Part shown: in pieces, positions 1,567 to 55,165 of the stretch
Layout of the letters: each line of letters begins with the position of its first letter
Position numbering within the stretch: the first letter of the stretch is position 1
NCBI GenBank assembly: GCA_039588075.1
Contig: JBDHAL010000019.1
Location: forward strand, 1-56,431
DNA from: Gemmatimonadota bacterium
GTDB taxonomy: Bacteria; Gemmatimonadota; Gemmatimonadetes; Palauibacterales; KS3-K002
DNA: 56,431 bases
Direction: 5' to 3'
The notes under the pieces: generated by a model
Database searches by the model: none
Told to the model about the DNA's origin: nothing
What the model saw: only the letters and a program-made list of their open reading frames with translations
Made by a program: the position numbers and the translations under genes

Positions 1567-1679
1567 GAGTCGTCGCTTGGCCTATTGACAAGATCCCTCG
1601 CTATTAGCGATTCGCAGGTTTCTGTGGAGGCATGCCCTGTTCTCAAAGGGTGCTGGGCGGTCGAGCGCTTTGCATCGGT

Positions 1680-2381: not shown

Positions 2382-2510
2382 TGTGCCCTCACCAGAGTTT
2401 GCTAGTTCTTAAACTCTGCCAACTTCGTAAGAAAGTCCTGCTCCATGTTCCCTGCGTTGACCTTCTAGTCGAAACGCTCGGTGGCCAACTGCACGTTGCC
2501 GGCGGCCTCT

Positions 2511-3731: not shown

Positions 3732-3767
3732 GCACTCCCCCTGGCTCGCCGGATTTCGCCGCTCGAG

Positions 3768-4718: not shown

Positions 4719-4763
4719 CCTACCCGCACGCGTGTGAGTCGCGAGAGCCTGCCTGTCTCACTC

Positions 4764-8964: not shown

Positions 8965-8972
8965 GGAATCGG

Positions 8973-9965
8973 CTAGCGTGTCTCGTGAGTGCCCGGAGCG
9001 TCGGGCTCCGATCGTCGCGAGTCCATTGCCTCTTCGACTTTCTTCAGTCGCCAGTCGACCCCCTCCAGTAGTTTCCTGTTGACCGATATGAGGTCGGCTA
9101 TCAGGCCCACAACGGCCAGGAAGAACCCGGTTCCCATCAGCAACGCGGCAAGTATGAGTGATTGGATGTGGCCGCTTCCTCGGTCCGAGAAATAGAAGTA
9201 GAGAAAGCGCAGGCTGATCACGAAACCACCGCTGAACAGGATCAGGCCCTGGACGGCGAAGAAGCGGAACGGCTTGTAGGTCATGAAAATGCGAAGCATG
9301 GTCAGGATCTGGCGGTTTAGGTAGCCGGGTAGACTTCTCACCAGGCGCGACGGCCGCAGATCCTTGTTCGTCCTTACGGGGACGGACGTGATCGACATGC
9401 CTTTCTGGCCGGCCTGGATTATCGTCTCGATTGTGTACGTGTATTCGTTGAAGACGTGAAGCTTCATCGCTGCTTCGCGGCTCAATGCTCGGAATCCACT
9501 CGGCGCGTCTTGCACGTCGGTCCGACTGATGATCCGTGTAGCCCAGCTACCGGCCCGCTGGAGCAGCTTCTTCGCAGCCGAAAATTGCCTCATCTCGTTG
9601 ATCGGACGCGCGCCGACCACGATCTGGGCCTCGCCATTCAGGATTGGCTCGATCAGCTTGGGAATGTCCTCTGCACAGTACTGGTTGTCTGCATCCGTGT
9701 TGACGATGATGTCCGCGCCCGCCCTCAGCGACGCCTCGAGTCCTGCCACGAATGCCCGCGCCAATCCCTGGTGCCGCGGCAGGCGCACTATGTGGTCGAC
9801 CCCGCTCCGGGCGGCCACCTCCGCCGTTCCGTCCTCGCTGCCGTCGTCGATCACCAGCCACTCCACTTCGTCCACTCCCGGAACTGCCCGTGGTAAGGCC
9901 GAGAGCGTCACCGGAAGGCTCTCCTCCTCGTTGTAGCACGGGATCTGGACGATCAACTTCGCCAT
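8973..9965 (-). CDS. GT2 glycosyltransferase, DPM1-like (polyprenol-phosphate sugar synthase-type), two C-terminal TM helices
   Basis: IPCYNEE, IDDGSEDGT, NTDADNQY (DxD), VVGAR, D..SGFRA and a hydrophobic C-terminal hairpin. Confidence 0.85.
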   Translation of the reverse strand: MAKLIVQIPCYNEEESLPVTLSALPRAVPGVDEVEWLVIDDGSEDGTAEVAARSGVDHIVRLPRHQGLARAFVAGLEASLRAGADIIVNTDADNQYCAEDIPKLIEPILNGEAQIVVGARPINEMRQFSAAKKLLQRAGSWATRIISRTDVQDAPSGFRALSREAAMKLHVFNEYTYTIETIIQAGQKGMSITSVPVRTNKDLRPSRLVRSLPGYLNRQILTMLRIFMTYKPFRFFAVQGLILFSGGFVISLRFLYFYFSDRGSGHIQSLILAALLMGTGFFLAVVGLIADLISVNRKLLEGVDWRLKKVEEAMDSRRSEPDAPGTHETR

Positions 9966-10229: not shown

Positions 10230-11990
10230 GTGGCGGCCGGCGAGCGCCACGCTGAAGAGACGAATCGAGTGAAAACCGCTGAGCAAAGAAGCGCTGCCGG
10301 CGAGTCCCCTGTGACGGAACCGAGTGCGGCGAGGGTTTCGAAGCCGCAAGGGTCCGGCGAAGGCAGATTTCCGCGCCGGGACGTGTTGCGCTGGATATAC
10401 CTGACGCGCATCGGTCTGGCGGGGGGCCTGTTCGTCGGAGCGGTCTTCGCGTGGACGGCGGCGTCTCCCGTCCGCACGCTGACAGCGACCCTGGTGCTGG
10501 TGTTCGCGCTGGTTCTAACGCCGGCCTCCTACTGGTACACCCACATACGGCAGCGGCGCGTCGACATGAGCTTCGTCTACACGCAGGCGATCTTCGACGC
10601 GTTGCTGGTGACCCTGACGGTTGATCTCACGGGAGGAAGCAACAGCGTCGTTGCGCCCCTCTACATCCTGCTGATCAGCGCCTACACCCTTATGCTGCCG
10701 CTGAGCGGTGGCTTCCTCGTGACGGCGATGGCCTGCATCGCGTACATAGCCGATGTCGTATGGGGTCAGGGAACAGCGGTCAATACGGTCGTCGGGCTTC
10801 AGTTGGGAATATTCGTTCTGGTGGCGCTCATGGTCGGAGCGATAACCACTAAGCTGACTCAGACGGGGGCGGAGCTGACCTCGGTAGAGGATGCTCTGCA
10901 GCAGTTGAGGCTCGATACCGACGACGTGCTGGGCAACATTCCGACGGCCGTACTCACCATCGATGGCGAGGGTAGGCTGGCCTATGCGAACCCAGCGGCT
11001 GAGACGCTGCTCGGCATATCAGCCGACGCCTGGCGAGAAAGGCCGGTCCTTTTCGAACTGCACCAGCGCTCCACAGAACTGCAGCAGATACTCGAACGAA
11101 CGCAGCGGTATCGAATGCCAGTGTCCAGCGCCGAGATCACGGTAAGTCGGAATTCCGGCGACATACCGGTCGGTATCAGTACTGCCGTGCTCGAGCGCAA
11201 GGAGGGGCCGCCGTCGGTCACCGCGATCATGCGGGACATCTCGGATGTGAAGCGGATTCAGAAGTTGCGTCAACGCACGGAACGATTGGAAGCCGTAGCC
11301 GAGCTCTCCGCCTCTCTCGCCCACGAGATCAAGAACCCGCTGGCCTCGATCAGCAGCTCGGTTCAGCAGCTCGAGCTCAGCAGCGGAGCCGACGACGACG
11401 ATCGCCTGTTGTCGCGCCTCATCCAGAGGGAGTCGGATCGCCTGTCCCGTCTGCTGAGCGATTTCATCGATTTCGCACGGATTCACATCGAGCGTTCAAG
11501 AGAGCTCGATCTGAGGAGCGTCGTTACCCAGGCGGTGGAGCTCATACGACAGCATCCTGCGTATGGCGAGGATACGACGATCGAAGTCCGGCTGGATGAG
11601 GAGCCCGTGATCTTCGACGGCGATGAGGACCTGATGCATCGAGTCGTGACGAACCTGGTCCTCAATGCGCTTCAGGTGGCCGAACCCGGCAAGAAGACAA
11701 CGGTCGCGGTGGAGGCTTACAACTCCGCCGGCCGGCCGGCTCTGTTGGGCGTCGATATCACGGACCCGGTGACCCTAACGGTAGCCGACGACGGCCCCGG
11801 TATCCCCGATAGCGACCTGAAACGCGTATTCGATCCGTTCTTCAGTCGGCGAGCCGGTGGCACGGGCCTGGGCCTGGCCATCGTTCACAGGGCCGTCCGT
11901 GAGCACGATGGCACCATCCTCGTGACGTCGACGACCGAAGCCGGCACTCAATTCACCGTGTGCCTGCCGCGCAAATCGCCCGCTACATAG
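10230..11990 (+). CDS. pilS: PilS-like sensor histidine kinase (multi-TM, PAS, HisKA, HATPase); true start may be somewhat downstream
   Basis: About 6 TM helices with a D.....LTGG.NS....LY pattern, PAS region, LAHEIKNPL H-box, NLVLNA, DDGPGI, FDPFFS and GGTGLGL; paired with pilR upstream of the pilin. Confidence 0.8.
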   Translation: MAAGERHAEETNRVKTAEQRSAAGESPVTEPSAARVSKPQGSGEGRFPRRDVLRWIYLTRIGLAGGLFVGAVFAWTAASPVRTLTATLVLVFALVLTPASYWYTHIRQRRVDMSFVYTQAIFDALLVTLTVDLTGGSNSVVAPLYILLISAYTLMLPLSGGFLVTAMACIAYIADVVWGQGTAVNTVVGLQLGIFVLVALMVGAITTKLTQTGAELTSVEDALQQLRLDTDDVLGNIPTAVLTIDGEGRLAYANPAAETLLGISADAWRERPVLFELHQRSTELQQILERTQRYRMPVSSAEITVSRNSGDIPVGISTAVLERKEGPPSVTAIMRDISDVKRIQKLRQRTERLEAVAELSASLAHEIKNPLASISSSVQQLELSSGADDDDRLLSRLIQRESDRLSRLLSDFIDFARIHIERSRELDLRSVVTQAVELIRQHPAYGEDTTIEVRLDEEPVIFDGDEDLMHRVVTNLVLNALQVAEPGKKTTVAVEAYNSAGRPALLGVDITDPVTLTVADDGPGIPDSDLKRVFDPFFSRRAGGTGLGLAIVHRAVREHDGTILVTSTTEAGTQFTVCLPRKSPAT

Positions 11991-12018
11991 CACTCTATAG
12001 CAGAACCGGAGACACGTC

Positions 12019-13386
12019 GTGAACAATTCCAGCCCTAAAATCCTGATCGTTGATGATGAACAGGGCATTGTAGATACGCTGACGATCCTCCTCAAGCGGG
12101 AGGGCTTCGAGGTGGTCTCTGCTCTTTCGGGCGCCGATGGCATCGAAAAGCTCGGGGAGCAACCCGACGTCGTATTGACCGACATCAGGATGCCCAAGGT
12201 GAGTGGAATCGACGTCCTCTCTGAGGCGCGTGCCAGGCATCCGGATGTGCCCGTCGTGCTGATGACCGCGCAGGCGTCACTGCAGTCGGCTATTCAGGCG
12301 GTCAACCAGGGTGCCTTCTACTACATCCAGAAGCCGTTTACGAATGACGAGTTGCTTGCCATCCTGCGTCGGGCGGCGGATTTCGGTAGGGTCACTCTGG
12401 AAAACCGCTCGCTCAAGCGGGAGATTCGCAAGCGAGATCGCTCGTCGCATTCCAGGCCGATCGGTCGCTGCCAGAATTTCCTCGACGCTCTCCAGGTCGC
12501 CGAGACTGTCGCGCCCACTGAGTCAACCGTTCTGATCCAGGGCGACAGCGGAACAGGCAAGGAAGTCCTCGCGCGCTTCGTCCACGAACTGTCGCAACGC
12601 TCCGAGAATTTGTTCCTGAGCATCAATTGCGGCGCTCTCCCCGAGAGCCTTCTCGAGTCCGAGTTGTTCGGCCATGTGAAGGGAAGTTTCACCGGGGCGC
12701 ACCGCGACAAGCAGGGCCTGTTCCTCGCGGCGAACGGCGGCACCCTGTTCCTGGACGAAGTGGGAGAGATGGTTCCTGCCACACAGGTCAGGTTGCTTCA
12801 TGTCCTCCAGCAACACGAGGTGATCCCCGTGGGCGCCACGGAACCGGTTAAGGTCGATGTTCGTATCATAGCCGCCACGAACGCCGATCTCGAGGAGCAG
12901 ATTCGCCAGGGCAATTTCCGCAGCGACCTTTTCTATCGGTTGAATGTGATCGCGCTCAACCTGCCTCCACTATGCGAGCGGCGCGATGACATCCCCTTGC
13001 TCGCCGAGAACTTCCTAAACCGATTCGCCAGCCGTCGCGATGCGGATCCGCTGCGACTCACGGAAGAAGCACTCGATGCTTTGCTCGCATACGATTGGCC
13101 GGGCAACGTGCGGGAACTGGAAAACGCGCTCGAGCGGGCCGTGGCTATGGCTCAGAGCGAGGTGATCGACAGGGATGTCCTGCCCAAGCGCGTGATCGAG
13201 CCGCAGCCCGTTCCCCTCGTGACCCAAGGTCAACCGGAGAACCCGCCGCTCGAGATCATCGAGCGCGCCTACATCGAGTGGGTCCTGAAGACGGAGGGTG
13301 GCAACAAGACGAGGGCCGCGGAAGTACTCGGTATCGACCCTTCCACGCTCTATCGCAAGCTGGCCCGGTTTGAGTCGGAGAGCTGA
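12019..13386 (+). CDS. pilR: PilR-like sigma54-dependent response regulator
   Basis: REC domain (VDDE, TDIRMP), [38 protein letters not shown] and Fis HTH. Confidence 0.8.
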   Translation: MNNSSPKILIVDDEQGIVDTLTILLKREGFEVVSALSGADGIEKLGEQPDVVLTDIRMPKVSGIDVLSEARARHPDVPVVLMTAQASLQSAIQAVNQGAFYYIQKPFTNDELLAILRRAADFGRVTLENRSLKREIRKRDRSSHSRPIGRCQNFLDALQVAETVAPTESTVLIQGDSGTGKEVLARFVHELSQRSENLFLSINCGALPESLLESELFGHVKGSFTGAHRDKQGLFLAANGGTLFLDEVGEMVPATQVRLLHVLQQHEVIPVGATEPVKVDVRIIAATNADLEEQIRQGNFRSDLFYRLNVIALNLPPLCERRDDIPLLAENFLNRFASRRDADPLRLTEEALDALLAYDWPGNVRELENALERAVAMAQSEVIDRDVLPKRVIEPQPVPLVTQGQPENPPLEIIERAYIEWVLKTEGGNKTRAAEVLGIDPSTLYRKLARFESES

Positions 13387-13396: not shown

Positions 13397-15381
13397 CTAC
13401 CCGGCTTCCGCCTCGGTCTGGGCGTCGGTTCCGTCGCGAAGCCGCAGGATCGTAAAGCCGCGTTCCCGGTAGACCGGTGTCAAGCACCTCTGGACGAAGG
13501 CCGGGAAGGAGTCGATGCCGAGAGTCTGCGGCTCCGTGCCGCGGAGGATGTAGTAGCGGGCTGCCAGGTCGCTAACCACGACATGAGTGATTCCAGATCC
13601 CTCGAGACAGCCGGTGTCGGCCTCCGCCAGCGGAGCGAGAAAGGCCCAGTTGGTCAGCACGTTGTCCTGGATGACTTGGGGCTCGAAGTAGTACCCGCGA
13701 GCCTCGAACAGGAGAAGCACTCGCGCGTTCTCCGGCACCAGGCGGTTCGTCGCTTCGGTGAGTCGGTAGTAGTACGTGAAACCCGTCTCGAGGTACCGGT
13801 TCTCTGATACGGTGCCGGCGAAGTAACCCAGAACCTGGCTTTTCCTGAACCAGAAGTGCATCGATTTCGCGGAGGGATACAAGACCAGAACACACAAGCA
13901 GACGAGGAGCAACCGAGCCGCCCCGGCCGAAAAGAAGCGTTCGCTGGTTCGCGCGGCCACCAGAACGGCGACTACGGTGAGGGGTGCGACGGCCGGAAAG
14001 AGATACCGCAAGTTCGTAGCCGGGAACGGGATCAGGATCAGAAGCAGGTAGCAGAGCGGGGGAACCAACAGCCAGATCACCGTTCGGTTTCGGATGAACG
14101 CGATCGAGAGCGGGAGAAGAAGATAGAGCATGTTCATGTGGTAGTACGCGCCTTCGGGCTCCACCGTTAGGCGCCCCGGTGCGATGAACAGGTCTATCAG
14201 GTTGAAATGGAGGCGAGCCTGCGCCAGCGCGCTGAGCGCTTGGACGTTTACTACATCGGGAATCGCGGAGGTGCCGTAAAGGGAAGCCAGCCACGGCTGT
14301 AGCTTCAACTGCGAGAACAGCGGGTACAGCGGAGCCCCGATGACGATCCAGTTCTTCACCAACCACGGGGCTCCGGCGGCAACGGCCAACAGAGCGAACA
14401 GTGACAGGGGTCGGATCGAGGCGCCAAGCGAACGGCAATGGGAACGTGCCGTCCAGATGATCAGTGGGCTGAGGGCGGCTGAGTAAGCCAGTGCGTGGTA
14501 CTTCGTACCGATGGCGAACCCGAGAATCAGGCCGGACAGGTAGAACAGCGACAAACGCGAGGGCTCCGCTAGCGCGATCAGCAGCGCGTACTGAGCCATG
14601 AATAGGTAGAACGCCAGCGTTACATCGATCCGGGGGGTGATGGCGACGAGCAGGATGCCGGTCGTTGCCCAAAGTTGTGTCAGGCTGAGGCTGGCGGTCG
14701 CGCCGCCGAAGAACCGTGCCGCAAGCGAGAACATGGCGAGCGCCAACAGAAGCGCGAAGCACGTGGGAGGAAGACGCGGCCTTCCTCGAGGAATAGGCGC
14801 GGCACCTCCAGGTGGTACATCAGGCTGTCCCAGTCGGCCGGCGGAGCACTGGCCTGGATCGCGAGAGCGATGGCGACGACGCCGAACACGATCGCAGCGA
14901 GTATCAAGTAGGCCGGGTGTTCGCTCTGAGATCTCACCTGGCCGATGGCTCGCGCCCAAAGACTTGGAAGCTCAGCGAGTTCGCGTCGCGCGGTCGCGGC
15001 CGCGACGATAGGAACGAGAATGACGACGGGCCCGTTCAGAACGGAGGCCAACCCGCAGGCGAGGTAAGAGGTGGAGATGAGCGCCGCGCCGACGGCGGTG
15101 CAAAACCCGATTTCCTCCAGCGGTTGCTCCCACGCCAGTCGGAAGCGGGCGAGAACGAATCGGCCGATGGCGGTGGACGCGGCCAGCAGCAGGACGGCGA
15201 CGAAGATACCGAAGACGTGGTCAAAAACGGCGAGCGGGCCGGTGTAGGTGGCGCCTTCAGGTTGCAGGTAAAAGTGGACGGCACCCGTAACGAGAAAGAG
15301 AGCCGCGGCGAGAGGACCTGCCGGACGAAGGCGTCGGGGGCGCTCGACGTTGCTCGAACTGCTCTGAGGGTCGGGGGCCAC
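13397..15381 (-). pseudogene. GT-C-fold (ArnT/GT39-like) membrane glycosyltransferase split by a frameshift near 14765
   Basis: N-half (ORF 14680..15381) is polytopic and ends with DWDSLMYHLEVPRLFLEEGRVFLP. The hydrophobic sequence continues in another frame (ORF 13397..14959) as TCFALLLALAMF..., then GTKY, PWLVKNW...GAPLYP and RYLFP. Confidence 0.75.
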
Positions 15382-15506
15382 GTGTCGGTGCCTCTCTTGC
15401 AGTGGAGTGAAGCTTGGTCGGCGGGGGTGATGGGAACCTTGAAGATAGGGTGGTAGTAGGAAATGGCAATCCTCGCCCAGCGAATTCGCGATGACATGTA
15501 TGGGAG

Positions 15507-17564
15507 ATGTTGATGGCCCCTAGTCGGTCTGGGTGGCTCAAGTTCGCTTTGCCGGGGCTGGCAGTTGCGCTCGGCCTGTTGGCTTTCTTGCCCTGGGCGA
15601 GTTGGCTGGGCTTCGCCGGGTCGATCGAGATGGCGGCTTATCGGACCGTGCTTAGAGAGTGGAGCCTCTGGACGTTGGCGATAGTCGCCGGTGCGCTACT
15701 CGCGGCCCGGGTTTCGGGCGGACGGGTTGGTGAACGACTCGACGGCTTGCAGGTCAAGCTCGAAGCCATCCCCGGTCGTAGCTTCGTGGCCGTGTCGGCC
15801 ATCGCCGTCCTGCTGGCGGCCTGCCTGTTGTCGGAAGCGTTGTTCGCTCGCCTTCCGCATCACGTCGACAGCATCGCCCAACTCTTCCAGGCGCGGATTC
15901 TCACGCGCTTCCACCTGACGGCGCCGGCGCCGGTGTCGTACGAGTTCTTCGCGTTCACTAACTCGGTGCTGCACGAAGGCCGCTGGTTCTCCCAGTATCC
16001 TCCCGGTCACCCGGGACTGCTCGCCGTCGGGATGCTGCTCCACGCCCAGTGGCTGGTGAACCCGCTGTTTTCGGCCGGCACGGTGATACTTCTCTACGGA
16101 GCGGCACGCCGTCTACTCGGTGAGGGTAGCGCCAGGCTCGCGGCGGTACTTTACGCCATCTCGCCGTTTGTGCTCTTCATGAGCGCGAGCCACATGAACC
16201 ACGTGACGGCGGCGTTCTTTCTCGCCTTGGCCCTATACGCCAACACGCGGGCGACTGGAGGCGAGCGAGAGCTCCGCTGGCCGCTGGTGTTAGGGGTCGC
16301 CCTTGCGATCGCCGGCACTATTCGCCCGCTCGATGCTCTAGCATGGGCTGCGGTGCTGGGCAGCTGGTTATTGATCGAGCGCGGTTGGAGGGTTGCGCTC
16401 ATCGCGGGAGCCGTCTGTGTGGCCGGGCTGTTGCCTCTCTTTGCTTACAACGGACTGACCACCGGGAATCCGCTTCGCTTCGGCTATACACTCTTGTGGG
16501 GATCCGGTCATGGACTCGGTTTCCACATCGATCCATGGGGCGAGCCCTTCACGCTCCTGAGATCGCTCGCGGAAACGGCGTCCGACTTCCAGTTATTTAA
16601 TGCGGCTTTGTTCGGCTGGCCGGTCCCATCGTTCGTATTGCTGATTCTGGCGCTCGTGGCGGCTGGCACCGACCCGCGCTTGCGCAAAGCGTGCGCTCCG
16701 CTGATCGCATTGCTGTTGGTCGTACCGCTGGGGTATTTCTTTTACTGGCACAGGGATCAGTTCCTCGGACCTCGCTTCCTGTATGCGTCGATCGTTCCGG
16801 CGGTCATGCTGAGTGCGGCCGGGATCGCCGCGGTCGATCGGCGGTTGGGGCACTGGCGCGAGGCCTTCCGGATGGCTCTGCTCGCGAGCCTGTTCATCGG
16901 GCTGGGCGTCAAGTTTCCGGTCACCGCCGGGACGCTCGCCGGGTTGAACCCCGAATTCAAGTTTCGTCCAGAGGAACAGGCGCGGCAGGCCGGCCTGAGC
17001 GATGCCGTCATCTTCGTGAAGGTCGGTTGGGGCACTCGATTGGTGGCACGCATGTGGGGCTGGGGCATCTCAGCACCTGAGGCGGAGCAGACGTATCGCA
17101 CGGTCGACGGATGCCGGCTGCAGATCGCGCTCGACGAAGCTGACTCACTCGCCCTGGCCGGGGCGGATTCGGCTCGGGTTCGGCAAGAATTGGAGCAGCG
17201 GCTCGGTGAGTGGCGCGGCGAGAGGCTGCCCGTGATCCGGGGTTATTTCCCCGACCCAAGCGTTCGAGTTGACACAACACACCCGATTGTTGCTCGCTGT
17301 CGACAAGAGCTAGAGCTGGACCTGACGGGCTACACTCACTACGCGACTCTCGTGTGGCGCAACGATCCCTGGCTGCAGCGCGGATTGGTGTTCGCTCGAC
17401 TTCTCGACCCGGCACGCAACGAGATGCTGATGGCTCGATATCCGGATTTCGATCATTTCCTCTACGCTCCGGCGGCACCGGAGCGCGGAGTTCGACCGGA
17501 TCTCCGGCGACTGCGTGAGGAGAAGCCCGAGATGCCCGATGCCGAAGCAGAGGGCGGCAGATGA
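15507..17564 (+). CDS. GT-C-fold (ArnT/PMT-like) membrane glycosyltransferase
   Basis: Many TM helices; first-loop PHHVDSIAQLFQA, GRWFSQYPPG, SPF, RPLDA, GPRFLY; soluble C-terminal domain. Confidence 0.75.
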   Translation: MLMAPSRSGWLKFALPGLAVALGLLAFLPWASWLGFAGSIEMAAYRTVLREWSLWTLAIVAGALLAARVSGGRVGERLDGLQVKLEAIPGRSFVAVSAIAVLLAACLLSEALFARLPHHVDSIAQLFQARILTRFHLTAPAPVSYEFFAFTNSVLHEGRWFSQYPPGHPGLLAVGMLLHAQWLVNPLFSAGTVILLYGAARRLLGEGSARLAAVLYAISPFVLFMSASHMNHVTAAFFLALALYANTRATGGERELRWPLVLGVALAIAGTIRPLDALAWAAVLGSWLLIERGWRVALIAGAVCVAGLLPLFAYNGLTTGNPLRFGYTLLWGSGHGLGFHIDPWGEPFTLLRSLAETASDFQLFNAALFGWPVPSFVLLILALVAAGTDPRLRKACAPLIALLLVVPLGYFFYWHRDQFLGPRFLYASIVPAVMLSAAGIAAVDRRLGHWREAFRMALLASLFIGLGVKFPVTAGTLAGLNPEFKFRPEEQARQAGLSDAVIFVKVGWGTRLVARMWGWGISAPEAEQTYRTVDGCRLQIALDEADSLALAGADSARVRQELEQRLGEWRGERLPVIRGYFPDPSVRVDTTHPIVARCRQELELDLTGYTHYATLVWRNDPWLQRGLVFARLLDPARNEMLMARYPDFDHFLYAPAAPERGVRPDLRRLREEKPEMPDAEAEGGR

Positions 17565-19183
17565 GGGCTTCGCTCACTTCCGATCGGGCGATGAGAATCG
17601 CGGTGGCCCTCGGCGTCGGGGTCGTCGTCGCGGCAATCGGCATGTGGGCGCAGAACGGATCGCTGGTCGGCGTAAACGTGGATGACGGCTTCTATGTCCT
17701 TTTGGCGAAAGCGCTGGCGGAGGGCGAGGGATACCGGCTGACCTACCTGCCCGTCAGCCTACCGGGCGTCAAGTACCCGCCGGTCTATCCATTGAGTTTG
17801 GTGCCCTTCTGGACCTTCGTTGGATCTCAGAGCGCCGCCCTCTATGCCATGAAGCTGGCCAACGGTCTGTACATCGGCCTGGCCGCAGGCCTGTTCGCGC
17901 TCCTGCTCATCGACCTGCGCTTGCTCTCCGTCCCGCTGGCTGGACTCGTGGCGCTGGTCGGGTTCGCGTCGGGCTCCGTCATGCTGGTGACCTCCGGTCT
18001 GCTGTCGGAGCCGCTCTATCTGGTCTTGCTGGTCCTCGCGCTGTGGCTGACCGATAGGCTTCGTGAGCCGGTCGCCACATGGCAATTGGCCGCCGTGGGC
18101 GTACTGGCGGCCGGCGTGGCTCTAACGAGGACCGTCGGCGTCGCCCTGGTCGGTGCGGTTCTACTGGCGACCTGGAAGCGCTTTGGTACGCGGCGGATGC
18201 TGACGGTGGCAGCGGCAGCCGCGATCACCCTCACACCGTGGATCATCTTTTCGCACATCGGGTCCAGTCAGATCCCGGATGTACTGAAATCCAATTATGG
18301 ATCTTACCTGCAGCTGTATCTGCTCAACCTCCAGGGCTCACCGCTGTCGGTGTTTGAGATCGCCTCCGTCAACCTGGACGCCATGCTCGAGACGTTTGGC
18401 GCCAAGATCCTTCCGCTTCGCGGCCTGATTCCTCGAATGCTGGCGGCCGCGGCATTCATCGCTTTTGCGATCGGCGGATCCAAGAAGGTTTTCCAAAACG
18501 CGACGGCTCTGGCCATTTATCCCTGGCTCTACCTCGCTCTGGTGCTGATCTGGTCGTTCCCGCCGTTTCGCTTCGTGTTCGCGATCTTTCCCTTGCTTCT
18601 GGCGCTGGCGGTCATCGGGTTCTGGTCGCTGGCGGATACGCTTGGGAATGCCGATGCGCCGCGGGGAGGGGGTGCCTTGGACCAGAAGCGACGTCAACTT
18701 CTTCGCCGGCTCGCCCTGGCTGTTGGGTTGCTCGTCTTCGCCAACATCGCTTTTCGCGAGGGCCGGTCGCTTGTGCGCAGGGTCTGGGACGGTGCGCAGT
18801 TGCACAAGTCCGCCGTCAGCGCCGAGGTCATTGACTGGGTGCTCGCGAACACCGATTCCAGTACCGTGATTGCTTTTGAGTTCGACGCCTTGATCGCGCT
18901 GCACACCGGTCGCCCGGCCGTTCCCAACAGCAACGACCCCGTCCACATCTGGTATCGTCGAACCGACGCCCCGGCCGCGGCAACGGCGCGGCTGCTCAGC
19001 GAGATGAACGTGACGTACCTGGCGGTCAGGCGGGACGTTCCGGCGGCAGTAGCACCTATCGAAACGTTGATGGAGGTCTATCCGGGCAGCCTGGAGCTGA
19101 TACACGTGACTCCAGGGGCGGCATTGATTCTCGAAGCGAACCTGGATGCGTTGAAAACCGAGGAGCGAGGAGTGATCTGGTGA
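17561..19183 (+). CDS. GT-C-fold membrane glycosyltransferase
   Basis: First-loop acidic motif VDDGFYVLLAKALAEGEGY, KYPPVYP, LLSEPLY, LTRTVG; many TM helices; ATGA-coupled to the previous gene. Confidence 0.75.
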   Translation: MRASLTSDRAMRIAVALGVGVVVAAIGMWAQNGSLVGVNVDDGFYVLLAKALAEGEGYRLTYLPVSLPGVKYPPVYPLSLVPFWTFVGSQSAALYAMKLANGLYIGLAAGLFALLLIDLRLLSVPLAGLVALVGFASGSVMLVTSGLLSEPLYLVLLVLALWLTDRLREPVATWQLAAVGVLAAGVALTRTVGVALVGAVLLATWKRFGTRRMLTVAAAAAITLTPWIIFSHIGSSQIPDVLKSNYGSYLQLYLLNLQGSPLSVFEIASVNLDAMLETFGAKILPLRGLIPRMLAAAAFIAFAIGGSKKVFQNATALAIYPWLYLALVLIWSFPPFRFVFAIFPLLLALAVIGFWSLADTLGNADAPRGGGALDQKRRQLLRRLALAVGLLVFANIAFREGRSLVRRVWDGAQLHKSAVSAEVIDWVLANTDSSTVIAFEFDALIALHTGRPAVPNSNDPVHIWYRRTDAPAAATARLLSEMNVTYLAVRRDVPAAVAPIETLMEVYPGSLELIHVTPGAALILEANLDALKTEERGVIW

Positions 19184-21024
19184 GGAGTGAAGGGATGTCT
19201 CCGAAGCGTTTGAAGATTCTGCTCGCGACCCTGGTGGCATTGGCCGCCATCCTGGTCTATGCGAATTCGCTGGGGAATGATTTCGCATACGACGATGACG
19301 GCGTCATCTACAATCGAGAGTCGGTCCATGGTCTGAGCAACCTCCCAGAACTCCTGGTCGAGCCGTACTGGCCCGAACCCATGTTCGATGAGGAGCTGTA
19401 CCGTCCGTTGATCCTGCTGACCTACGCCGTCGACTGGAAAATCTGGAACGGGAAGCCATTCGGCTTTCACCTGGTCAACGTCTTACTGCACGCGGCCGTC
19501 AGCGTTCTCCTGGCCCTGTTGCTGCTCCGCTTCTTCTCTTGGAGGGGCGCCCTCGCCGGCGGCCTGATCTTCGCCGTTCACTCCGTTCACACGGAAGCCG
19601 TCGCCAACATCGTTGGCCGTGCAGAACTGATGGTGGCGTTCTTCGCCCTGATCGCCGCTCTCATCTACACGCGGTCGGTCAGGGACGGCCGCATCTCGGC
19701 CCGCTGGGTCGCTCTGATCGTCCTGTGTTACGTGCTGGCGAGCTTCTCGAAGGAGCTTGGCGTTGTCATCCCGGGTCTACTTCTGGCGACCGATCTGCCA
19801 TTGATCGGTCGCCGGCAGGCCGGGACGCTGAAGCAGTTCGTGCGGGTCCGGCTGCCCCTGTTCGTCGTCCTGACGGCGACCCTGGCCGGTTATCTCGTGA
19901 TCCGCTGGGCGGTGCTCGGCGCGTCGGTTGAGAGCGTGCCGGACCGCATCTTCGCGATCGACAATAGCTTTGCCACGCGCTTCTTCACGATGTCGAGGGT
20001 TTGGGTTCGGTACGTCAATCTGTTGCTGTTCCCGCTCGACCTCTCGGCGGACTACAGCCCCGCGGTCATTCTACCGGCCGAGCACCTGACCGGTCTCGGC
20101 GTGGTCGGCATCGCCGTCGTTCTCGGATCGGCCGTCGTGTCGGTCGCCAGCCTGCGCAAGTTTCCGGAGATCGGGATGGCCGCTCTTTGGATAGCCATCG
20201 CGCTGCTTCCCGTGTCGAACCTGGTTATCACGGCGAACATCGTCTTGGCCGAGCGCACGCTCTACCTGGCGTCGGCGGCGGTGTCATTCCTGGCGGCGCT
20301 GCTGCTCGAGAGGGCGGCCCCTGCCTATCGCCGGTTCGTGGCCATCGGCATGGCTCTGTGGATCGTAGGCTTCTCCATCGTCACTGTGCGGCGCAACCCG
20401 GTTTGGGAGAATACAGACACGGTGTTCGAGGACCTGCGTCGCAATCACCCTGAGTCTTCGCGGCTGCTCTACGGCATCGGACTCACTTATGACATGCGCG
20501 GTGAGTGGGACGAGGCGGTCAAGTGGTACCGAAAATCCCTGGCCATATGGCCCTACGCAAAGACGCACCTGAGACAGTTCACCCGCAATCTGTATGAGCG
20601 TGGCCAGTACGAGGAGGCTGCCTACTGGACGCGCATCGCACTTCAGATTCAGCCAGAAAAGCTCCGACATCACTACGTCCTCTCGCTTTGCCTGGTGCGC
20701 GGAGGTGACCCGACCGGCGGTCTCGAGGCGATCGAACGGGCCTTCGCCATCGTCGGGCCGAACGCCGCCCTCTATACCCTGCAGGCCGAGGCCTACGCCC
20801 AGCTCGGCGATCTGGAACGCGCGGTGCTCGCGCAGGAGGCCGCCGTCAGGGGCCGCAGGCCGGAACCTGATTGGGAGTCTTGGCACCGGTTGGCCTCACT
20901 GCGGGCCCAAGCGGGCGACACCGTGGCGGCCCTCATCTACCTGGAGCAGGCCCGGCGGTCCGAAGGTGCCGATCCGCTGGTCGCTGACTCGCTGGAGGCC
21001 GAGTGGCGTGGCCTAATCCGTTGA
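19180..21024 (+). CDS. TMTC/DUF1736-like protein O-glycosyltransferase with C-terminal TPR repeats
   Basis: YANSLGNDFAYDD, YRPL, FHLVNVLLHA, FAVHSVHTEAVANIVGRAEL, SKELG, LSADYS, AERTLYL, RNPVW, then TPR helices. These match the conserved TMTC motif order. Confidence 0.85.
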   Translation: MRSEGMSPKRLKILLATLVALAAILVYANSLGNDFAYDDDGVIYNRESVHGLSNLPELLVEPYWPEPMFDEELYRPLILLTYAVDWKIWNGKPFGFHLVNVLLHAAVSVLLALLLLRFFSWRGALAGGLIFAVHSVHTEAVANIVGRAELMVAFFALIAALIYTRSVRDGRISARWVALIVLCYVLASFSKELGVVIPGLLLATDLPLIGRRQAGTLKQFVRVRLPLFVVLTATLAGYLVIRWAVLGASVESVPDRIFAIDNSFATRFFTMSRVWVRYVNLLLFPLDLSADYSPAVILPAEHLTGLGVVGIAVVLGSAVVSVASLRKFPEIGMAALWIAIALLPVSNLVITANIVLAERTLYLASAAVSFLAALLLERAAPAYRRFVAIGMALWIVGFSIVTVRRNPVWENTDTVFEDLRRNHPESSRLLYGIGLTYDMRGEWDEAVKWYRKSLAIWPYAKTHLRQFTRNLYERGQYEEAAYWTRIALQIQPEKLRHHYVLSLCLVRGGDPTGGLEAIERAFAIVGPNAALYTLQAEAYAQLGDLERAVLAQEAAVRGRRPEPDWESWHRLASLRAQAGDTVAALIYLEQARRSEGADPLVADSLEAEWRGLIR

Positions 21025-21180
21025 GGGATAACGGCTTGGAAGCGTCTTGGGCATTGGAGTGGCGTGATGCGACGACCCTTGCAGAATGCGCTTGGATTCC
21101 GGGCGAACGGCGGGTTGCGCGAGCGGCTGTATGCGGAGTAACCTGTTGCGGGTCATGAAGTTGGGCCTATAAGGCCGAGG

Positions 21181-21197
21181 CTGGTCCCGATCTTGCC
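21181..21197 (+). promoter_or_regulatory. sigma54 -24/-12 promoter of pilA (CTGGTCCCGATCTTGCC)
   Basis: TGG-N10-GC with TTGC at -12, about 65 bp before a strong RBS/ATG (AAGGAGG). Consistent with PilR control. Confidence 0.7.
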
Positions 21198-21262
21198 CAT
21201 GAGTGGGCGGAAGGTAGTCTGAATAGGATCTACCGCGGTAGTGACTCACAAAGGAGGACTAG

Positions 21263-21643
21263 ATGGTACGGAACACTAAGGGCTTCACCTTGATCGAGCT
21301 GCTGATCGTGGTGGTGATCATCGGCATTCTGGCCGCGATCGCCATCCCGAAGTTCGCGAACACCAAGGAGAAAGCTTACGTCTCGGCGATGAAGTCGGAC
21401 TTGCGGAACCTGGCGGCTGCTGAGGAGGCGTATTTCGCCGACTACCTGCAGTACTCGAGCACGGCCGGGATCGACTTCAACCAGACCAAGGGTGTCACGG
21501 TCACGGCGACGGGTGACGGCACGGGCTGGCAGGCGACTGCCACGCACAGCGGCGTCAGCACGGCGGGCTTCGACTGTGAGATCTATTATGGAGCAGCGGG
21601 CAGCAGCGGTGCTCCCACCGAGGGTGTGATCGACTGCGGCTAA
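21263..21643 (+). CDS. pilA: Type IVa major pilin
   Basis: Class III signal KG|FTLIELLIVVVIIGILAAIAIP (E5, P22), C-terminal Cys pair, own promoter, RBS and terminator. Confidence 0.92.
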   Translation: MVRNTKGFTLIELLIVVVIIGILAAIAIPKFANTKEKAYVSAMKSDLRNLAAAEEAYFADYLQYSSTAGIDFNQTKGVTVTATGDGTGWQATATHSGVSTAGFDCEIYYGAAGSSGAPTEGVIDCG

Positions 21644-21669
21644 GCGGTTGACCATTCTTTGGTAAAGGG

Positions 21670-21702
21670 TAGCGCGGAGGGTGACCTCCGCGCTATTCTT
21701 TT
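21670..21702 (+). terminator. Intrinsic terminator after pilA
   Basis: TAGCGCGGAGG-GTGA-CCTCCGCGCTA (11-bp perfect stem, GNRA loop) followed by TTCTTTT. Confidence 0.85.
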
Positions 21703-21779
21703 GGGGGTACCCCCGCCTTGGCTGGCACGGCCGGCAGAAGGTTCCCCCACAGTACAAACCAATCCCCCGCTGGGAGCAT

Positions 21780-23039
21780 GTGAAAGCGGTTGCATCACTG
21801 CGTCGTGAGCTGATCGTCGCCTTGGCCCTGCTGCTCGTTGGAGCTTTGGGTCTGGCGGCTGTCGCCGTACTCCTCTGGCTGCCCATCGGCGGTTCGATCG
21901 AGAGCATCGTCCTGTTTCTGGTTGTCCTGGTGGCGCTGGATGTCGGGACTTTCATCGTCTTCGGCGACTACCTTCTCCGGGGGATGGTGCTCAAGCCGGT
22001 TCGCGCGATCGTGCACGGCGCCGAAGCCATCGCCCGCGAAGACTACTCGCGCCGCATCAGCGTCCAAGGTGCGCAGGAGCTGGAGCGGCTGGCGGCCAGC
22101 GTGAACGAGCTGGCCGAGAAGCTGATCCAAAACGAAAAGCGGCTGAGCGAGAACATTCAGTCCTTGAACGACGTCAACCGGGCGCTCACCGAGGCCCGGG
22201 ACGAGTTGGTCAGGGCAGAGAAACTGGCTTCGGCCGGGCAACTGGCCGCCGGGATCGCTCACGAGATCGGCAACCCGCTGGGCGCGGTCCTGGGATACCT
22301 GGAGGTCGCCGAGCGGCGCCCGAAAATCGGTCAGGACCTGGTGGACGACATGCGTCGTGAGGCCCGACGTATTGACAGAATCGTCAAAGGCCTCTTGGAT
22401 TACGCTCGACCCCGGCAGCCGGCGCCCCGGCCGATCGAGGTCAACGACGTCGTACGCGGGGCTCTGGAGCTGGTCGAGGCGCAGGGCCACTTCAAGGAGA
22501 TCGACCTCGTCTTGGATCTCAGTGAAGAGGTCACCGCGGTCTTCGCCGACCCTCATCAGCTCGAGCAGATCATGGTGAACCTGCTCCTGAATGCGGCGCA
22601 GGCTGTCGACGGTCGCAGCGGCAACCAGGTCAGGGTGGGCACCGAGACCGTGCCGTACAAGATCAGCGCGCCGCCCGCCCGGCGGCGTGACGATCCACCC
22701 GGGATCGACTACTCACACCTGCGCAGGCTGCAGGCCCGGCGCGAAGGGCTGACGCCGCCGCCCTTCACCATGGGCTCGAAGGTCGTGGAGATTGCGATCG
22801 AGGACAACGGGCCGGGAATACCGACGGAGATTCTGGACCGGGTGTTCGATCCGTTCTTCAGTACCAAGGAGACCGGCCAGGGTACCGGCCTGGGTCTGGC
22901 CGTTTCGGCCCGCCTGATCGAGGGAATGGGTGGGACCATCAGGGTCGTGTGCCCCGAGGCCGGTGGCGCCACCTTCTCGGTTCTGTTGCCCGTGGCCACA
23001 GTCGAAATGGAAAAAGACGAAACTGAGGAAGAGGAATAG
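21780..23039 (+). CDS. HAMP-domain sensor histidine kinase (PilS2-like)
   Basis: Two TM helices, HAMP, EKLASAGQLAAGIAHEIGNPL, DNGPGI, GTGLGL. Start moved to GTG 21780 (GGGAG RBS) because the track start lies inside the terminator. Confidence 0.85.
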   Translation: MKAVASLRRELIVALALLLVGALGLAAVAVLLWLPIGGSIESIVLFLVVLVALDVGTFIVFGDYLLRGMVLKPVRAIVHGAEAIAREDYSRRISVQGAQELERLAASVNELAEKLIQNEKRLSENIQSLNDVNRALTEARDELVRAEKLASAGQLAAGIAHEIGNPLGAVLGYLEVAERRPKIGQDLVDDMRREARRIDRIVKGLLDYARPRQPAPRPIEVNDVVRGALELVEAQGHFKEIDLVLDLSEEVTAVFADPHQLEQIMVNLLLNAAQAVDGRSGNQVRVGTETVPYKISAPPARRRDDPPGIDYSHLRRLQARREGLTPPPFTMGSKVVEIAIEDNGPGIPTEILDRVFDPFFSTKETGQGTGLGLAVSARLIEGMGGTIRVVCPEAGGATFSVLLPVATVEMEKDETEEEE

Positions 23040-23042: not shown

Positions 23043-24407
23043 GTGAATGTACTGGTCATAGACGATGAAGCCGGGGTGCGTCGCACCCTGTCGATGATCC
23101 TCGAGGATGAGGGCTACCAGGTCATCACCGCTTCCGATGGCAAGGAAGGGCTCGAACGCGCCCTCAAGGAAGAGCCCGACCTCATCCTCTGCGACATTCG
23201 AATGCCGCGGGTCGATGGGCTCGAGTTCCTGGAGCAGTACCGGAAGAAGAACGGGCAGGCCCTCGTTATTACTATCACCGCCTACGGCAGCAACGAGCTG
23301 GCTGTCGAAGCGATGAAGAAGGGCGCCTACGACTACCTGCCAAAGCCGTTCACCACGGCCGAGGTCGTGCTCACGCTGAAGAAGGCGGAGGAGCGAGAGA
23401 AGCTTCGGCGCGAGGTCAGTCGGCTACGCAAGCGAGTCAAGGCGGACGAACGATACCCGGAGATCGTTGCCAAGAGCGCCGGGATGCGAGAGGCGGTCGA
23501 GCTCAGCACCAAAGTGGCGCAGCACCCATCAACTGTGCTCATCACCGGCGAAAGCGGTACCGGCAAGGAGTTGATCGCCCGCCTCACCCACGGTGCGAGC
23601 CCACGAGCCTCGCGGCCGTTCGTGCCGATCAACTGCGGAGCTATTCCGGAGAACCTGCTCGAGTCGGAACTGTTTGGTCACGTCAAGGGCGCTTTCACGG
23701 GCGCACACACCGATAGGGCCGGCCTTTTCGAAGAAGCGGACGGCGGAACACTCTTCCTGGACGAAATCGGTGAGTTGCCGTCCCAGCTGCAGGTGAAGCT
23801 GTTGCGGGCTCTGCAGGAAGGCGAGATTCGGCGTGTCGGCGACAGCACCGACAAAAAGGTGGACGTCCGCATCATCGCCGCCACGGCCCGTGATCTGGAA
23901 CAAGAGGTCCGGGAAGGGAACTTCAGATCCGATCTCTACTATCGGATAAACGTTGTGCGCATCCATCTGCCGCCGCTGCGACAGCGGACCGAGGATACGC
24001 CGCCTCTGACTCGGCACTTCATCGAGAAGTTCTCCAAGCAGCTCGGCATCGATGTGAACGGCTTCGAGCCGGCCGCCATGAAGCTGTTGCTCGCTCATCC
24101 TTGGTACGGCAACGTCCGCCAGCTCGAGAACGTCGTCGAACGGGCCATGGTGCTGGCCGAGAGCCCGACGATAAGGCCCGAGGACCTTCCCGATTTCATC
24201 CGTCACCCGGAGACCGCCGTCGAGGGGCCGATGGAGGCGCTGCCGGCGGACGAGCTATCTATCAAGAAACAGACGGCCGAACTCGAGCGACGTCTCATCG
24301 GGCGCGCCCTCCAGATCACCGATGGCAACCGCACCAAGGCCGCCGAGCTGCTCGATCTCAGTTATCGGGCTCTGCTGTACAAGATTCGGGACTACGGACT
24401 GGACTAG
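23043..24407 (+). CDS. sigma54-dependent response regulator (PilR2-like)
   Basis: REC (IDDE, CDIRMP), [24 protein letters not shown] and Fis HTH. Confidence 0.88.
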   Translation: MNVLVIDDEAGVRRTLSMILEDEGYQVITASDGKEGLERALKEEPDLILCDIRMPRVDGLEFLEQYRKKNGQALVITITAYGSNELAVEAMKKGAYDYLPKPFTTAEVVLTLKKAEEREKLRREVSRLRKRVKADERYPEIVAKSAGMREAVELSTKVAQHPSTVLITGESGTGKELIARLTHGASPRASRPFVPINCGAIPENLLESELFGHVKGAFTGAHTDRAGLFEEADGGTLFLDEIGELPSQLQVKLLRALQEGEIRRVGDSTDKKVDVRIIAATARDLEQEVREGNFRSDLYYRINVVRIHLPPLRQRTEDTPPLTRHFIEKFSKQLGIDVNGFEPAAMKLLLAHPWYGNVRQLENVVERAMVLAESPTIRPEDLPDFIRHPETAVEGPMEALPADELSIKKQTAELERRLIGRALQITDGNRTKAAELLDLSYRALLYKIRDYGLD

Positions 24408-55031: not shown

Positions 55032-55148
55032 GTTCGTTCTCAGCCGTTCTAAAATGAAACCAGCGCAGGCGCTTGCTCCTCCCCGTCCGGTCGGGCAGGA
55101 CCGGGCGCGGCGGGTGCGCGCGAACTTTCGATTCCGGCAGGCCAGAAG

Positions 55149-55165
55149 TGCAACCACCGTGCCAG
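55149..55165 (-). promoter_or_regulatory. sigma54 -24/-12 promoter of dnaK
   Basis: Minus strand CTGGCACGGTGGTTGCA matches the consensus TGGCACG-N4-TTGCW exactly. Confidence 0.8.

Follow-up and report, generated by a model that had tools for sequence, protein, structure and literature searches.

A TMTC-like GT-C/TPR protein encoded directly upstream of pilA is a candidate pilin O-glycosyltransferase in Gemmatimonadota

Introduction

Among known systems of pilin glycosylation, TfpW of Pseudomonas aeruginosa appears to be the one that most closely resembles the gene cassette described here. TfpW is a glycosyltransferase of the GT-C type with 11 predicted transmembrane (TM) helices and a periplasmic tetratricopeptide repeat (TPR) domain, and it is encoded next to pilA (bioRxiv 10.1101/2020.04.19.049825). 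As described in that preprint, TfpW of the group IV strains Pa5196 and PA7 is the pilin D-arabinofuranosyl (D-Araf) transferase, and its loss abolishes the Ser/Thr O-glycosylation of the pilin, the sites in Pa5196 being predominantly Thr64 and Thr66; the enzyme carries a DDX motif in periplasmic loop 1 and its best structural template is ArnT (bioRxiv 10.1101/2020.04.19.049825). Here we analyse a 56,431-nucleotide stretch of Gemmatimonadota DNA, hereafter the window, which is contig C19 of genome G000, a 4.09-Mb metagenome-assembled genome (MAG) of an uncultured bacterium that is 93% complete. A gene at positions 19180-21024 of the forward (+) strand encodes P0001, a TMTC-like GT-C glycosyltransferase candidate, and is followed by pilA, the gene of a type IV pilin precursor.

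Three other kinds of enzyme are relevant to the comparison. PglL/TfpO (PilO) of Neisseria and of P. aeruginosa group I modify pilin and are encoded beside or near pilin genes (bioRxiv 10.1101/2020.04.19.049825; PMC3643930). Three-component periplasmic glycosylation, as outlined for the addition of O-antigen side chains, combines a polyprenyl-phosphate sugar synthase of glycosyltransferase family 2 (GT2), a flippase and a GT-C enzyme (PMC11194591). The animal TMTC1-4 proteins (CAZy GT105, PF08409) are described as O-mannosylating cadherins, and the same source already mentions full-length prokaryotic TMTC homologues as uncharacterised (PMC7801869).

An original prediction, made from the letters of the window, had read P0001 as a bacterial TMTC-like O-glycosyltransferase and had nominated the pilin, and possibly an Ig-like lipoprotein, as its substrates. 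The analysis presented here leads us to favour, with moderate confidence, the reading that P0001 is a pilin O-glycosyltransferase that uses a lipid-linked sugar. Gene context points to PilA as the substrate. What the analysis shows concerns fold, topology, conservation of catalytic-type residues, gene order and presence/absence polymorphism; what it says of donor, acceptor, modified site and biological role is inferred.

Results

TMTC-like genes lie immediately upstream of pilin genes across the phylum

P0001 ends just before pilA (21263-21643, +; 126 aa), which encodes a type IV pilin precursor recognised by PF07963 (E 1.9e-9) and by TIGR02532 above its cut-off. The stop codon of P0001 is at 21024 and the start of pilA at 21263, so that the gap is 238 bp, as the original prediction had it (about 240 bp). 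Related loci were collected by scanning one genome per species with the family alignment, and the best 78 loci of 628 relatives, with 6-kb flanks, were analysed by a scan for the prepilin N-terminal motif and by tblastn with the window genes. All 78 come from Gemmatimonadota MAGs, of the Gemmatimonadales and the Longimicrobiales. Their common order is a histidine kinase and a sigma-54 regulator, an optional GT2 gene, between one and four TMTC-like genes in tandem, from one to three copies of pilA, then pilS and pilR; in the window's own clade, P0001 and two other GT-C genes, P0004 and P0003, stand in place of the tandem TMTC-like genes.

A pilin open reading frame (ORF) was found no more than 700 bp downstream of the last tandem copy and in the same orientation in 56 of the 67 assessable loci. 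The pilin was farther off in 4 loci and absent in 7 despite at least 700 bp of sequence, and the sequence ended too early in the remaining 11 of the 78; in one of the 7 loci without a downstream pilin (L049), a second copy adjoins pilA on the other strand. Over the 78 loci, 149 pilin motifs were counted in 294,162 bp downstream of the TMTC-like genes versus 0 in 363,099 bp of upstream sequence. As judged by tblastn, 58 loci contain pilA, and 56 keep pilS, and likewise 56 pilR, downstream of it.

The 78 loci had been chosen as best matches, and we therefore turned to an even phylum sample of 101 genomes (the tallies include the unpublished G056 and G096). A TMTC-like gene (E <= 1e-20) was found in 48 of them, that is in about half of the sampled Gemmatimonadota genomes, and a PilA-like gene in 97. 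Among the 100 TMTC-like matches, 60 were at most 6 kb from a listed PilA match. Thirty of the 31 leftover regions were re-inspected, the one left out being a 2.4-kb contig of the window's own genome (C305) that carries a second TMTC-like gene (65-922, -; PF08409, 49.7 bits) with its context lost at the contig end. Eight of the 30 turned out to be pilin-adjacent and had been missed mostly through contig ends, and another shows the same slot, with sequence that ends 167 bp after the last copy; the other 21 are discussed with the acceptors. In total, 43 of the 48 genomes with a TMTC-like gene have at least one pilin-adjacent copy. The linkage to the pilin is not chance: the original prediction had named a random placement of homologues with respect to pilins as the result that would speak against it, and TMTC-like genes were found immediately upstream of pilA across two orders.

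A tree of 163 membrane domains (FastTree, with local SH-like supports only and an arbitrary root) placed the pilin-linked copies in one clade of 115 rows and the non-linked paralogues in separate clades. Of these 115 rows, 96 carry a pilin label, and most of the remaining 19 come from loci cut by a contig end. Within the clade, first-copy genes group in one subclade (35 rows, for example L030:6001) and second-copy genes in another (33 rows, for example L030:7836). Because these subclades are distinct and widely shared, the tree points to an old tandem duplication of the TMTC-like genes with both copies kept.

The interval between the regulator and pilA is a variable slot

The sampled genomes that lack a TMTC-like gene provided 18 PilA loci for comparison. 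In 7 of them (L088, L089, L092, L094, L102, L103 and L104) the site is empty, the upstream sigma-54 regulator being directly followed by pilA(-pilA)-pilS-pilR; in 3 others different GT-C genes, resembling P0004 or P0003, occupy the slot, sometimes together with a GT2 gene. Filled slots (L008-L085) contain one to four GT-C genes of three subfamilies, again with or without GT2. When only the 27 loci bounded on both sides are considered, the commonest content is two TMTC-like genes and two pilins (15 loci, 5 of them with GT2). Because the slot is empty in some genomes and filled by differing GT-C genes in others, the regulator-pilA interval is a variable accessory cassette of zero to four GT-C genes, which a gene for a polyprenyl-phosphate sugar synthase may accompany. 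These natural empty-site controls strengthen the hypothesis that the pilin is the substrate.

The cassette probably diversifies the pilus surface. It recalls the pilin groups of P. aeruginosa, which are described as also differing in pilin-associated accessory genes (bioRxiv 10.1101/2020.04.19.049825). Pilus glycosylation has been reported to protect P. aeruginosa from pilus-specific phages (bioRxiv 10.1101/150227), and by analogy the presence/absence polymorphism of the cassette may have a similar ecological meaning.

P0001 is predicted to combine a GT-C membrane domain with a periplasmic TPR domain

The P0001 ORF has 614 codons from a GTG start. Translation probably begins at the ATG at 19195 rather than at this GTG, because a database entry that is 100% identical to P0001 has 609 aa. 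The ORF clearly reads as a real gene and not as a chance frame; it has 1104 homologues at E <= 1e-3 among 8000 candidates scored, and an exhaustive search with the membrane domain alone returned 61,344 representative clusters at E <= 1e-3 and 28,541 at E <= 1e-10. The same domain gave no match at 1e-8 when compared by tblastn with the plasmids of PLSDB.

The predicted membrane domain covers residues 1-410 (19180-20409, +) and the predicted periplasmic TPR domain residues ~412-614 (20413-21021, +), with TPR matches in Pfam over residues ~415-600. All the motifs named by the original prediction can be read in the translation, with the TPR repeats behind them: FAYDDD (residues 35-40), LYRPL (73-77), VNVLLHA (99-105), HSVHTEAVANIVGRAE (134-149), SKELG (190-194), LSADYS (288-293) and LAERTLY (356-362). 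In an alignment of 51 homologues, D38, D39, R75, P76, H134, H137, E139, K191, E192, D291, Y292, E358 and R359 are invariant in all 51, and 26 of 26 membrane domains also keep D38, D39, R75, K191, E192, D291, E358 and R359.

Hydropathy, the positive-inside pattern and the secondary structure of an AlphaFold2 model agree on a topology with the N-terminus inside, 11 TM helices, and the motif-bearing loops and the TPR domain in the periplasm. D38 and D39 are located in a 66-residue loop after TM1, which gives P0001 the acidic DD motif in the first extracytoplasmic loop that characterises GT-C enzymes. The AlphaFold2 model, built with 51 homologues, has a mean pLDDT of 92.8 and a pTM of 0.91. We compared it exhaustively, using VIA-align, with 48,161 representatives of the Protein Data Bank (PDB). 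Residues ~3-425 aligned to solved GT-C enzymes with Z scores of 17.5-19.3 over 320-349 residues for the leading matches, compared with the Z of ~13-14 that, as VIA-align itself warns, helical proteins can attain by chance. These matches were AglB (3waj, Z 19.3, 331 aa, rmsd 4.6), Pmt1-Pmt2 (6p2r, Z 19.2, 349 aa), STT3 (6s7t, Z 18.6), ArnT (5f15, Z 18.5), Pmt4 (9e61, Z 18.2) and PglB (5ogl, Z 17.5). Residues 426-614 matched TPR proteins, including PilW (2vq2, Z 18.9) and PilF (2fi7, Z 17.4). The GT-C fold was seen only by the exhaustive VIA-align search: Foldseek with the whole model found TPR proteins only, a sequence search of the PDB with whole P0001 likewise gave TPR matches only, and a profile of the membrane domain gave 0 matches there at E <= 10. 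The structure prediction that the original prediction had proposed as a check thus yields a GT-C fold and the TMTC-type architecture, 11 TM helices followed by a luminal or periplasmic TPR domain.

As for the donor, it is probably a polyprenyl-phosphate-linked sugar. P0001 keeps K191, E192 and R359, whose equivalents are presented as phosphate or metal ligands in the TMTC models of PMC7801869. Two co-folding runs of P0001 with mature PilA each returned a score of 0.00 and the verdict 'no answer', and count as evidence neither way.

P0001 stands at the edge of the TMTC family

Seven motifs, M1 to M7, are listed for human TMTC1-4 in Table 4 of Eisenhaber et al. 2021 (PMC7801869), and we judged their equivalents in P0001 by order and spacing rather than by alignment with TMTC sequences. 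M1 (DD) is present as D38 and D39, and M7 (ERxxY) as E358, R359 and Y362. The five others are partial. For M2, SHKSYRP in the human proteins, P0001 has only Y74-R75-P76, with DEEL in place of SHKS; M3, RxD, is RxE (R147-A-E149); M4, KE(T/Q)xxT, is reduced to K191-E192; M5, DW, is DY (D291-Y292); and M6, PxxP, is represented by its second proline, P344. The original prediction had announced a full TMTC motif series; its own motifs are indeed there, but measured against the published seven the description is overstated, with 2 complete and 5 partial.

The residues that are invariant both in the 51 homologues and in the 26 membrane domains correspond to M1, part of M2, M4, M5 and M7, the motifs to which metal, phosphate and acceptor binding are assigned in PMC7801869. 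The TMTC models of that source put the SHKS of M2 against mannose (PMC7801869). The absence of these mannose-contacting residues from P0001 argues for caution about mannose as its sugar.

Family membership gave a similar picture. PF08409 (TMTC_DUF1736), with a cut-off of 27 bits, gave P0001 a score of 23.9 bits with hmmscan and of 27.3 bits when the genome was searched in six frames. It matches 31 of the 51 family members at E <= 0.01 (best 7.9e-6), PMT_2 matching 4 of the 51, and it is the sole non-TPR Pfam family matched by most of the family. Among the clusters of the ESM Atlas, bacterial PMT_2 ones are nearest to P0001 (score 0.98), and a eukaryotic DUF1736 cluster follows only at rank 20 (0.94). 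The TMTC-like identity claimed by the original prediction therefore holds for the GT-C fold and for the 11 TM helices followed by TPRs, but proper membership in the family is borderline, with PF08409 at its cut-off, SHKS absent and PMT_2 clusters nearer. P0001 is best described as a borderline case: its architecture is that of TMTC, its active site is reminiscent of TMTC, and it lies at the margin of the family as delimited by Pfam. Like animal TMTC1-4, it would place its TPR domain on the luminal or periplasmic side after 11 TM helices, with M1 and M7 identical and with YRP (M2), KE (M4) and D (M5) retained; unlike them, it is bacterial and would reside in the inner membrane, and it differs by DEEL for SHKS, RxE, DY and the single proline of M6.

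Comparison with known pilin-glycosylation and GT-C systems

Measured against the description given of TfpW, P0001 has a similar length (614 aa), the same topology with a TPR domain, a DDD sequence in loop 1, a fold resembling that of ArnT, and a place next to pilA. The gene adjoins a pilin gene, as in TfpW-type systems, in the 56 of 67 loci and the 43 of 48 genomes reported above, but the orientation differs: P0001 is upstream of pilA and tfpW downstream. The two also belong to different phyla, and the TMTC-like genes, unlike tfpW, come in tandem copies or, for P0001, with two other GT-C genes. Of the D-Araf donor pathway (DprE1/DprE2 and DPPR synthase), the search covered DprE1 alone, through PF04030, the ALO domain carried by DprE1-type oxidases; it gave 0 matches in the 93%-complete genome and a positive Corynebacterium control. 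As no PF04030 gene was found, the donor of P0001 is probably other than D-Araf. What sets P0001 apart from TfpW, again compared by its description, is thus the phylum, the gene order, the copy number and companions, the proline motif of loop 4 (see below) and probably the donor.

TMTC is nowhere mentioned in the available text of the TfpW preprint (bioRxiv 10.1101/2020.04.19.049825). A literature search, with subscription journals (including the original TfpW reports) outside it, returned no relevant paper linking TMTC with pilin and none combining Gemmatimonadota, pilA and glycosyltransferase. The statement of the original prediction that the substrates of bacterial homologues are largely unassigned is correct for proteins labelled TMTC-like, but TfpW, which it did not mention, already exemplifies this kind of system.

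PglL/TfpO resemble what is proposed for P0001 in that, as described, they transfer in the periplasm from a polyprenyl-linked donor (bioRxiv 10.1101/2020.04.19.049825; PMC3643930). Unlike P0001, they have an unrelated fold of the Wzy_C or O-antigen ligase type and take pre-assembled oligosaccharides from a diphosphate carrier. P0001 gave no match to Wzy_C (PF04932), and the genome carries its three Wzy_C genes elsewhere, on contigs C31, C134 and C22. GtrABC/ArnT-type systems share the logic of a GT2 enzyme acting with a GT-C enzyme, and ArnT is among the best structural matches of P0001; they differ in acting on lipid A or O-antigen and in having no TPR domain. No GtrA-type flippase turned up in the slot, where no search aimed at GtrA was made.

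The pilin and the region upstream of pilA

PilA has the leader MVRNTKG, its mature form starting at F8. Across 36 aligned orthologues the N-terminal helix and two cysteines, Cys105 and Cys125, do not vary, and Ser/Thr-rich patches occur just behind helix alpha-1 and between the cysteines. From its place before pilS-pilR and near pilMNOQ we infer that pilA encodes the major pilin. In PilA of the window the first of these patches is at Y64-T67 (YSST). Thr64 and Thr66 of the Pa5196 pilin presumably lie in the alpha-beta loop, the region to which this first patch corresponds. In the 16 residues after alpha-1, the Ser/Thr fraction is 0.252 in pilins with an adjacent TMTC-like gene (n=102) and 0.167 in those without (n=12), with a Mann-Whitney p = 0.013 in a comparison that is post hoc and involves related sequences; that pilins with a TMTC-like neighbour are richer in Ser/Thr at this place is only a hint. 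Ten PilA-like matches were noted in genome G000, including a 58%-identical paralogue on contig C22 (13468-13845, -).

The consensus of sigma-54 promoters is TGGCAC-N5-TTGC. A predicted sigma-54-type promoter of pilA (-24 GG / -12 TTGC), TGGTCCCGATCTTGC, is located at 21182-21196 (+) and has two mismatches to it. A match of this quality is by itself not significant (50 found in the window vs 45.7 expected), whereas the core of this one, TGGyCCC-N4-TTGC, is unchanged in all 12 orthologous regions upstream of pilA that were aligned. A second conserved element, TGGCG..ATGCGA-N6-TTGCAnAATGC, occupies 21060-21090 (+); in the 12 orthologous intergenic regions its columns T36, G38-G40, T44-C46, A48, T55-A59 and T63-C65 are invariant, the rest of the gap being poorly conserved, and PilR or another sigma-54 activator may bind there. 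Because of the conserved sigma-54 core and of the PilR-like sigma-54 activator encoded downstream, pilA very likely has its own promoter. A look-up of RNA evidence on co-transcription across 17561-23039 returned no entry.

A terminator-like hairpin at 21630-21651 overlaps the end of pilA. Downstream come the genes of a PilS-like histidine kinase (21681-23039, +; HAMP, HisKA, HATPase_c) and of a PilR-like sigma-54-dependent response regulator (23043-24407, +; Response_reg, Sigma54_activat, HTH_8).

Pilin as the preferred acceptor, and the alternatives

In the mechanism that we propose, a cytoplasmic GT2 enzyme would load the sugar onto polyprenyl phosphate. P0001, as an inner-membrane GT-C enzyme with its catalytic loops and its C-terminal TPR domain facing the periplasm, would then transfer the sugar to Ser/Thr hydroxyls of PilA before the pilin leaves the inner membrane, in which its N-terminal helix anchors it. 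The folded head of the pilin would be held by the TPR domain, and P0004 and P0003 could lengthen or vary the glycan or contribute additional sugars.

Several observations weigh against this proposal. First, the TfpW motif of loop 4, YX6PFX7P, is absent in that form from P0001, where this loop reads LSADYSPAVILPAEH, that is Y292-x-P294-x4-P299, with Y292, P294 and P299 invariant. Second, three GT-C genes precede pilA, and context alone cannot tell which of them, if any, acts on the pilin. Third, in the 21 other re-inspected regions a TMTC-like paralogue has no pilin gene beside it (in one of them, L119, a 160-aa ORF with a pilin motif lies 2.4 kb upstream on the same strand), and therefore the family as a whole is not pilin-specific. 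Fourth, about half of the sampled genomes have a pilin and no TMTC-like gene, so that the enzyme is dispensable for pilus biogenesis. Fifth, over the whole head the Ser/Thr fraction does not differ, being 0.224 in pilins with an adjacent TMTC-like gene (n=102) vs 0.231 in those without (n=12). Finally, since pilA has a predicted sigma-54 promoter of its own, its co-transcription with the GT-C genes is not required, and the linkage could come from co-regulation or shared history instead of an enzyme-substrate relation. This last point weakens the operon argument and leaves the synteny argument intact.

Of the competing explanations, the one that survives best, although we consider it unlikely, is that the cassette glycosylates other periplasmic or surface proteins (minor pilins, the secretin, parts of the pilus machine or the lipoprotein encoded after pilQ) or serves general O-glycosylation, the pilin being at most one substrate. 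The TPR domain points to a protein acceptor and not to which one; minor-pilin-like genes and pilMNOQ are found within 11 kb downstream in the window, a Ser/Thr-rich lipoprotein is encoded at 32350-33363, the likely separate promoter of pilA fits as well, and general O-glycosylation systems of Neisseria are described as also targeting pilin. However, the neighbour that is conserved within 700 bp is pilA itself, pilM, pilN, pilO and pilQ were each found by tblastn in 0 of the 78 loci within the 6-kb flanks, and the cassette occupies precisely the interval from the regulator to pilA and is missing as a whole from the empty-site genomes.

Somewhat less probable again is a role in the modification of a glycan or lipid (exopolysaccharide, a side-branch of lipopolysaccharide, or lipid A, as for GtrC and ArnT), the adjacency to pilA resulting from co-regulation by the flanking sigma-54 two-component systems. 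The structural matches would agree with it, as they include ArnT and arabinosyltransferases such as AftB, with lipid or glycan acceptors, and so would the PMT_2 identity of the nearest language-model clusters, the sugar-nucleotide cluster with a 4-amino-6-deoxyhexose transaminase 10-19 kb upstream, and the GT2-flippase-GT-C logic described for O-antigen side chains (PMC11194591). In contrast, the enzymes considered here that join a GT-C domain to a C-terminal TPR domain, TMTC1-4 and TfpW, are described as acting on proteins. A tight and strand-specific place before pilA across two orders would be unexpected for a polysaccharide gene, and genes for polysaccharide export or for a polymerase were not encountered in the slot.

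That P0001 is instead an inactive transferase, used as a TPR scaffold or as a PilF/PilW/TadD-like pilus-assembly factor anchored by a degenerate GT-C domain, is highly improbable: its TPR domain does match PilW and PilF about as well as other TPR proteins, and some homologues are named 'Tfp pilus assembly protein PilF' or 'Flp pilus assembly protein TadD', but invariance of the catalytic-type residues in 51 of 51 homologues is unexpected for a degenerate domain, half of the genomes have the same pilin without a TMTC-like gene, and P0001, which has no lipobox and carries a 410-residue N-terminal domain of 11 TM helices, shares no more than the TPR fold with the TPR-only pilotins PilF and PilW, outer-membrane lipoproteins without a membrane domain.

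If pilin glycosylation by P0001 is true, a first substrate class would be available for its subfamily, pilin glycosylation by GT-C/TPR enzymes would reach well beyond the Pseudomonadota, and the paralogue set (first copy, second copy, OST-like and PMT_2-like) could serve to study how GT-C enzymes choose folded protein acceptors. A very large prokaryotic GT-C family gains in any case a concrete substrate hypothesis, through a phylum-wide and strand-specific link to a small, easily analysed pilin. A far wider generalisation, which we regard as doubtful, would make the bacterial TMTC-like GT-C/TPR proteins adhesin-specific O-glycosyltransferases for folded filament subunits, with the slot as a fast-evolving glyco-cassette built on an ancient tandem pair and producing a variable pilus sugar code (for example for phage escape), and with TfpW and the animal TMTCs as branches of a single functional lineage of O-glycosyltransferases specific for folded domains.

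The GT-C operon and other neighbours in the window

P0001 is the last of three GT-C genes. The first, P0004 (15507-17564, +), encodes a 685-aa protein of the PMT_2 family (PF13231, E 6e-11, 43.2 bits vs a cut-off of 26.1) and has orthologues at the same position in 17 of the 78 related loci. The second, P0003 (17561-19183, +), encodes 540 aa with an architecture like that of oligosaccharyltransferases (OST) and a small C-terminal periplasmic alpha/beta domain. The stop codon of P0004 overlaps the ATG of P0003 and the stop codon of P0003 overlaps the GTG of P0001; because of these overlaps, the three genes are read as one tight operon.

P0003 has no match in Pfam or NCBIfam. The 20 best structural matches of its AlphaFold2 model (pLDDT 88.9) are all GT-C enzymes, among them STT3 (6s7t, Z 22.1, 452 aa), AglB (3waj, Z 21.6), Pmt1-Pmt2 (Z 21.4), PglB (Z 20.6) and ArnT (Z 19.5), and its residues 413-531 are similar to the C-terminal domains of AglB (Z 7.8) and PglB (Z 6.3). 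D41 and D42 are invariant in 23 sequences. P0003 may represent an unrecognised OST-like family. Immediately after the last helix it reads RRVWDGA, at the place where oligosaccharyltransferases presumably carry WWDXG.

A divergent fourth GT-C candidate, PMT_2-like and 520 aa long, is encoded on the other strand (13397-14959, -); its PF13231 score (E 4.3e-5, 24.2 bits) is below the cut-off of 26.1, and orthologues occupy the same position in L012, L017 and L018. We rejected as a gene the ORF at 14812-15456 (+), which overlaps this opposite-strand gene, has a charged low-complexity translation and is without a family match. Farther upstream, a second two-component system (10230-13386) consists, by Pfam, of a PAS histidine kinase (10230-11990, +) and a sigma-54 response regulator (12019-13386, +). 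It is kept upstream of the GT-C genes in related loci (kinase in 35 and regulator in 56 of 78) and forms the upstream edge of the variable glycosyltransferase slot.

The gene at 8973-9965 (-) encodes a GT2 enzyme (PF00535) that is a candidate polyprenyl-phosphate sugar synthase. Its best NCBIfam matches (AglJ, PpgS, dolichyl-phosphate hexose transferase, ArnC) all fall short of their cut-offs; GT2 homologues stand directly beside the TMTC-like genes in 18 of the 78 related loci, and this enzyme could make the lipid-linked donor. Next to it, a sugar-nucleotide modification and glycosylation cluster (427-8964, -) comprises an aminotransferase, a GNAT protein, a GT4 glycosyltransferase, a flippase-like membrane protein, a dehydrogenase fusion, a methyltransferase and a gene of unknown function. 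It contains a match to the dTDP-4-amino-4,6-dideoxygalactose transaminase family NF008687 (484.9 bits vs a cut-off of 375) and one to the flippase-like domain TIGR00374 (33.6 bits, below the cut-off of 43.2). The cluster is a possible source of donor sugar for the GT-C genes; with the GT2 gene (427-9965) it is located beyond the reach of the 6-kb flanks of the related loci. The dehydrogenase fusion joins a Zn-dehydrogenase and a GFO oxidoreductase in 724 aa, and the sugar cluster together with the GT2 gene (427-9965, -) has an Arn-like layout.

On the other side of pilA, the gene directly after pilQ (on the + strand) encodes the predicted lipoprotein mentioned above, with a signal ending in ...GIAAC, a Thr/Ser/Val-rich sequence and no family match; it is probably the Ig-like lipoprotein of the original prediction. 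The sole perfect match to TGGCAC-N5-TTGC in the window is at 55150-55164 (-), at the 5' end of an HSP70 (dnaK-like) ORF (53106-55157).

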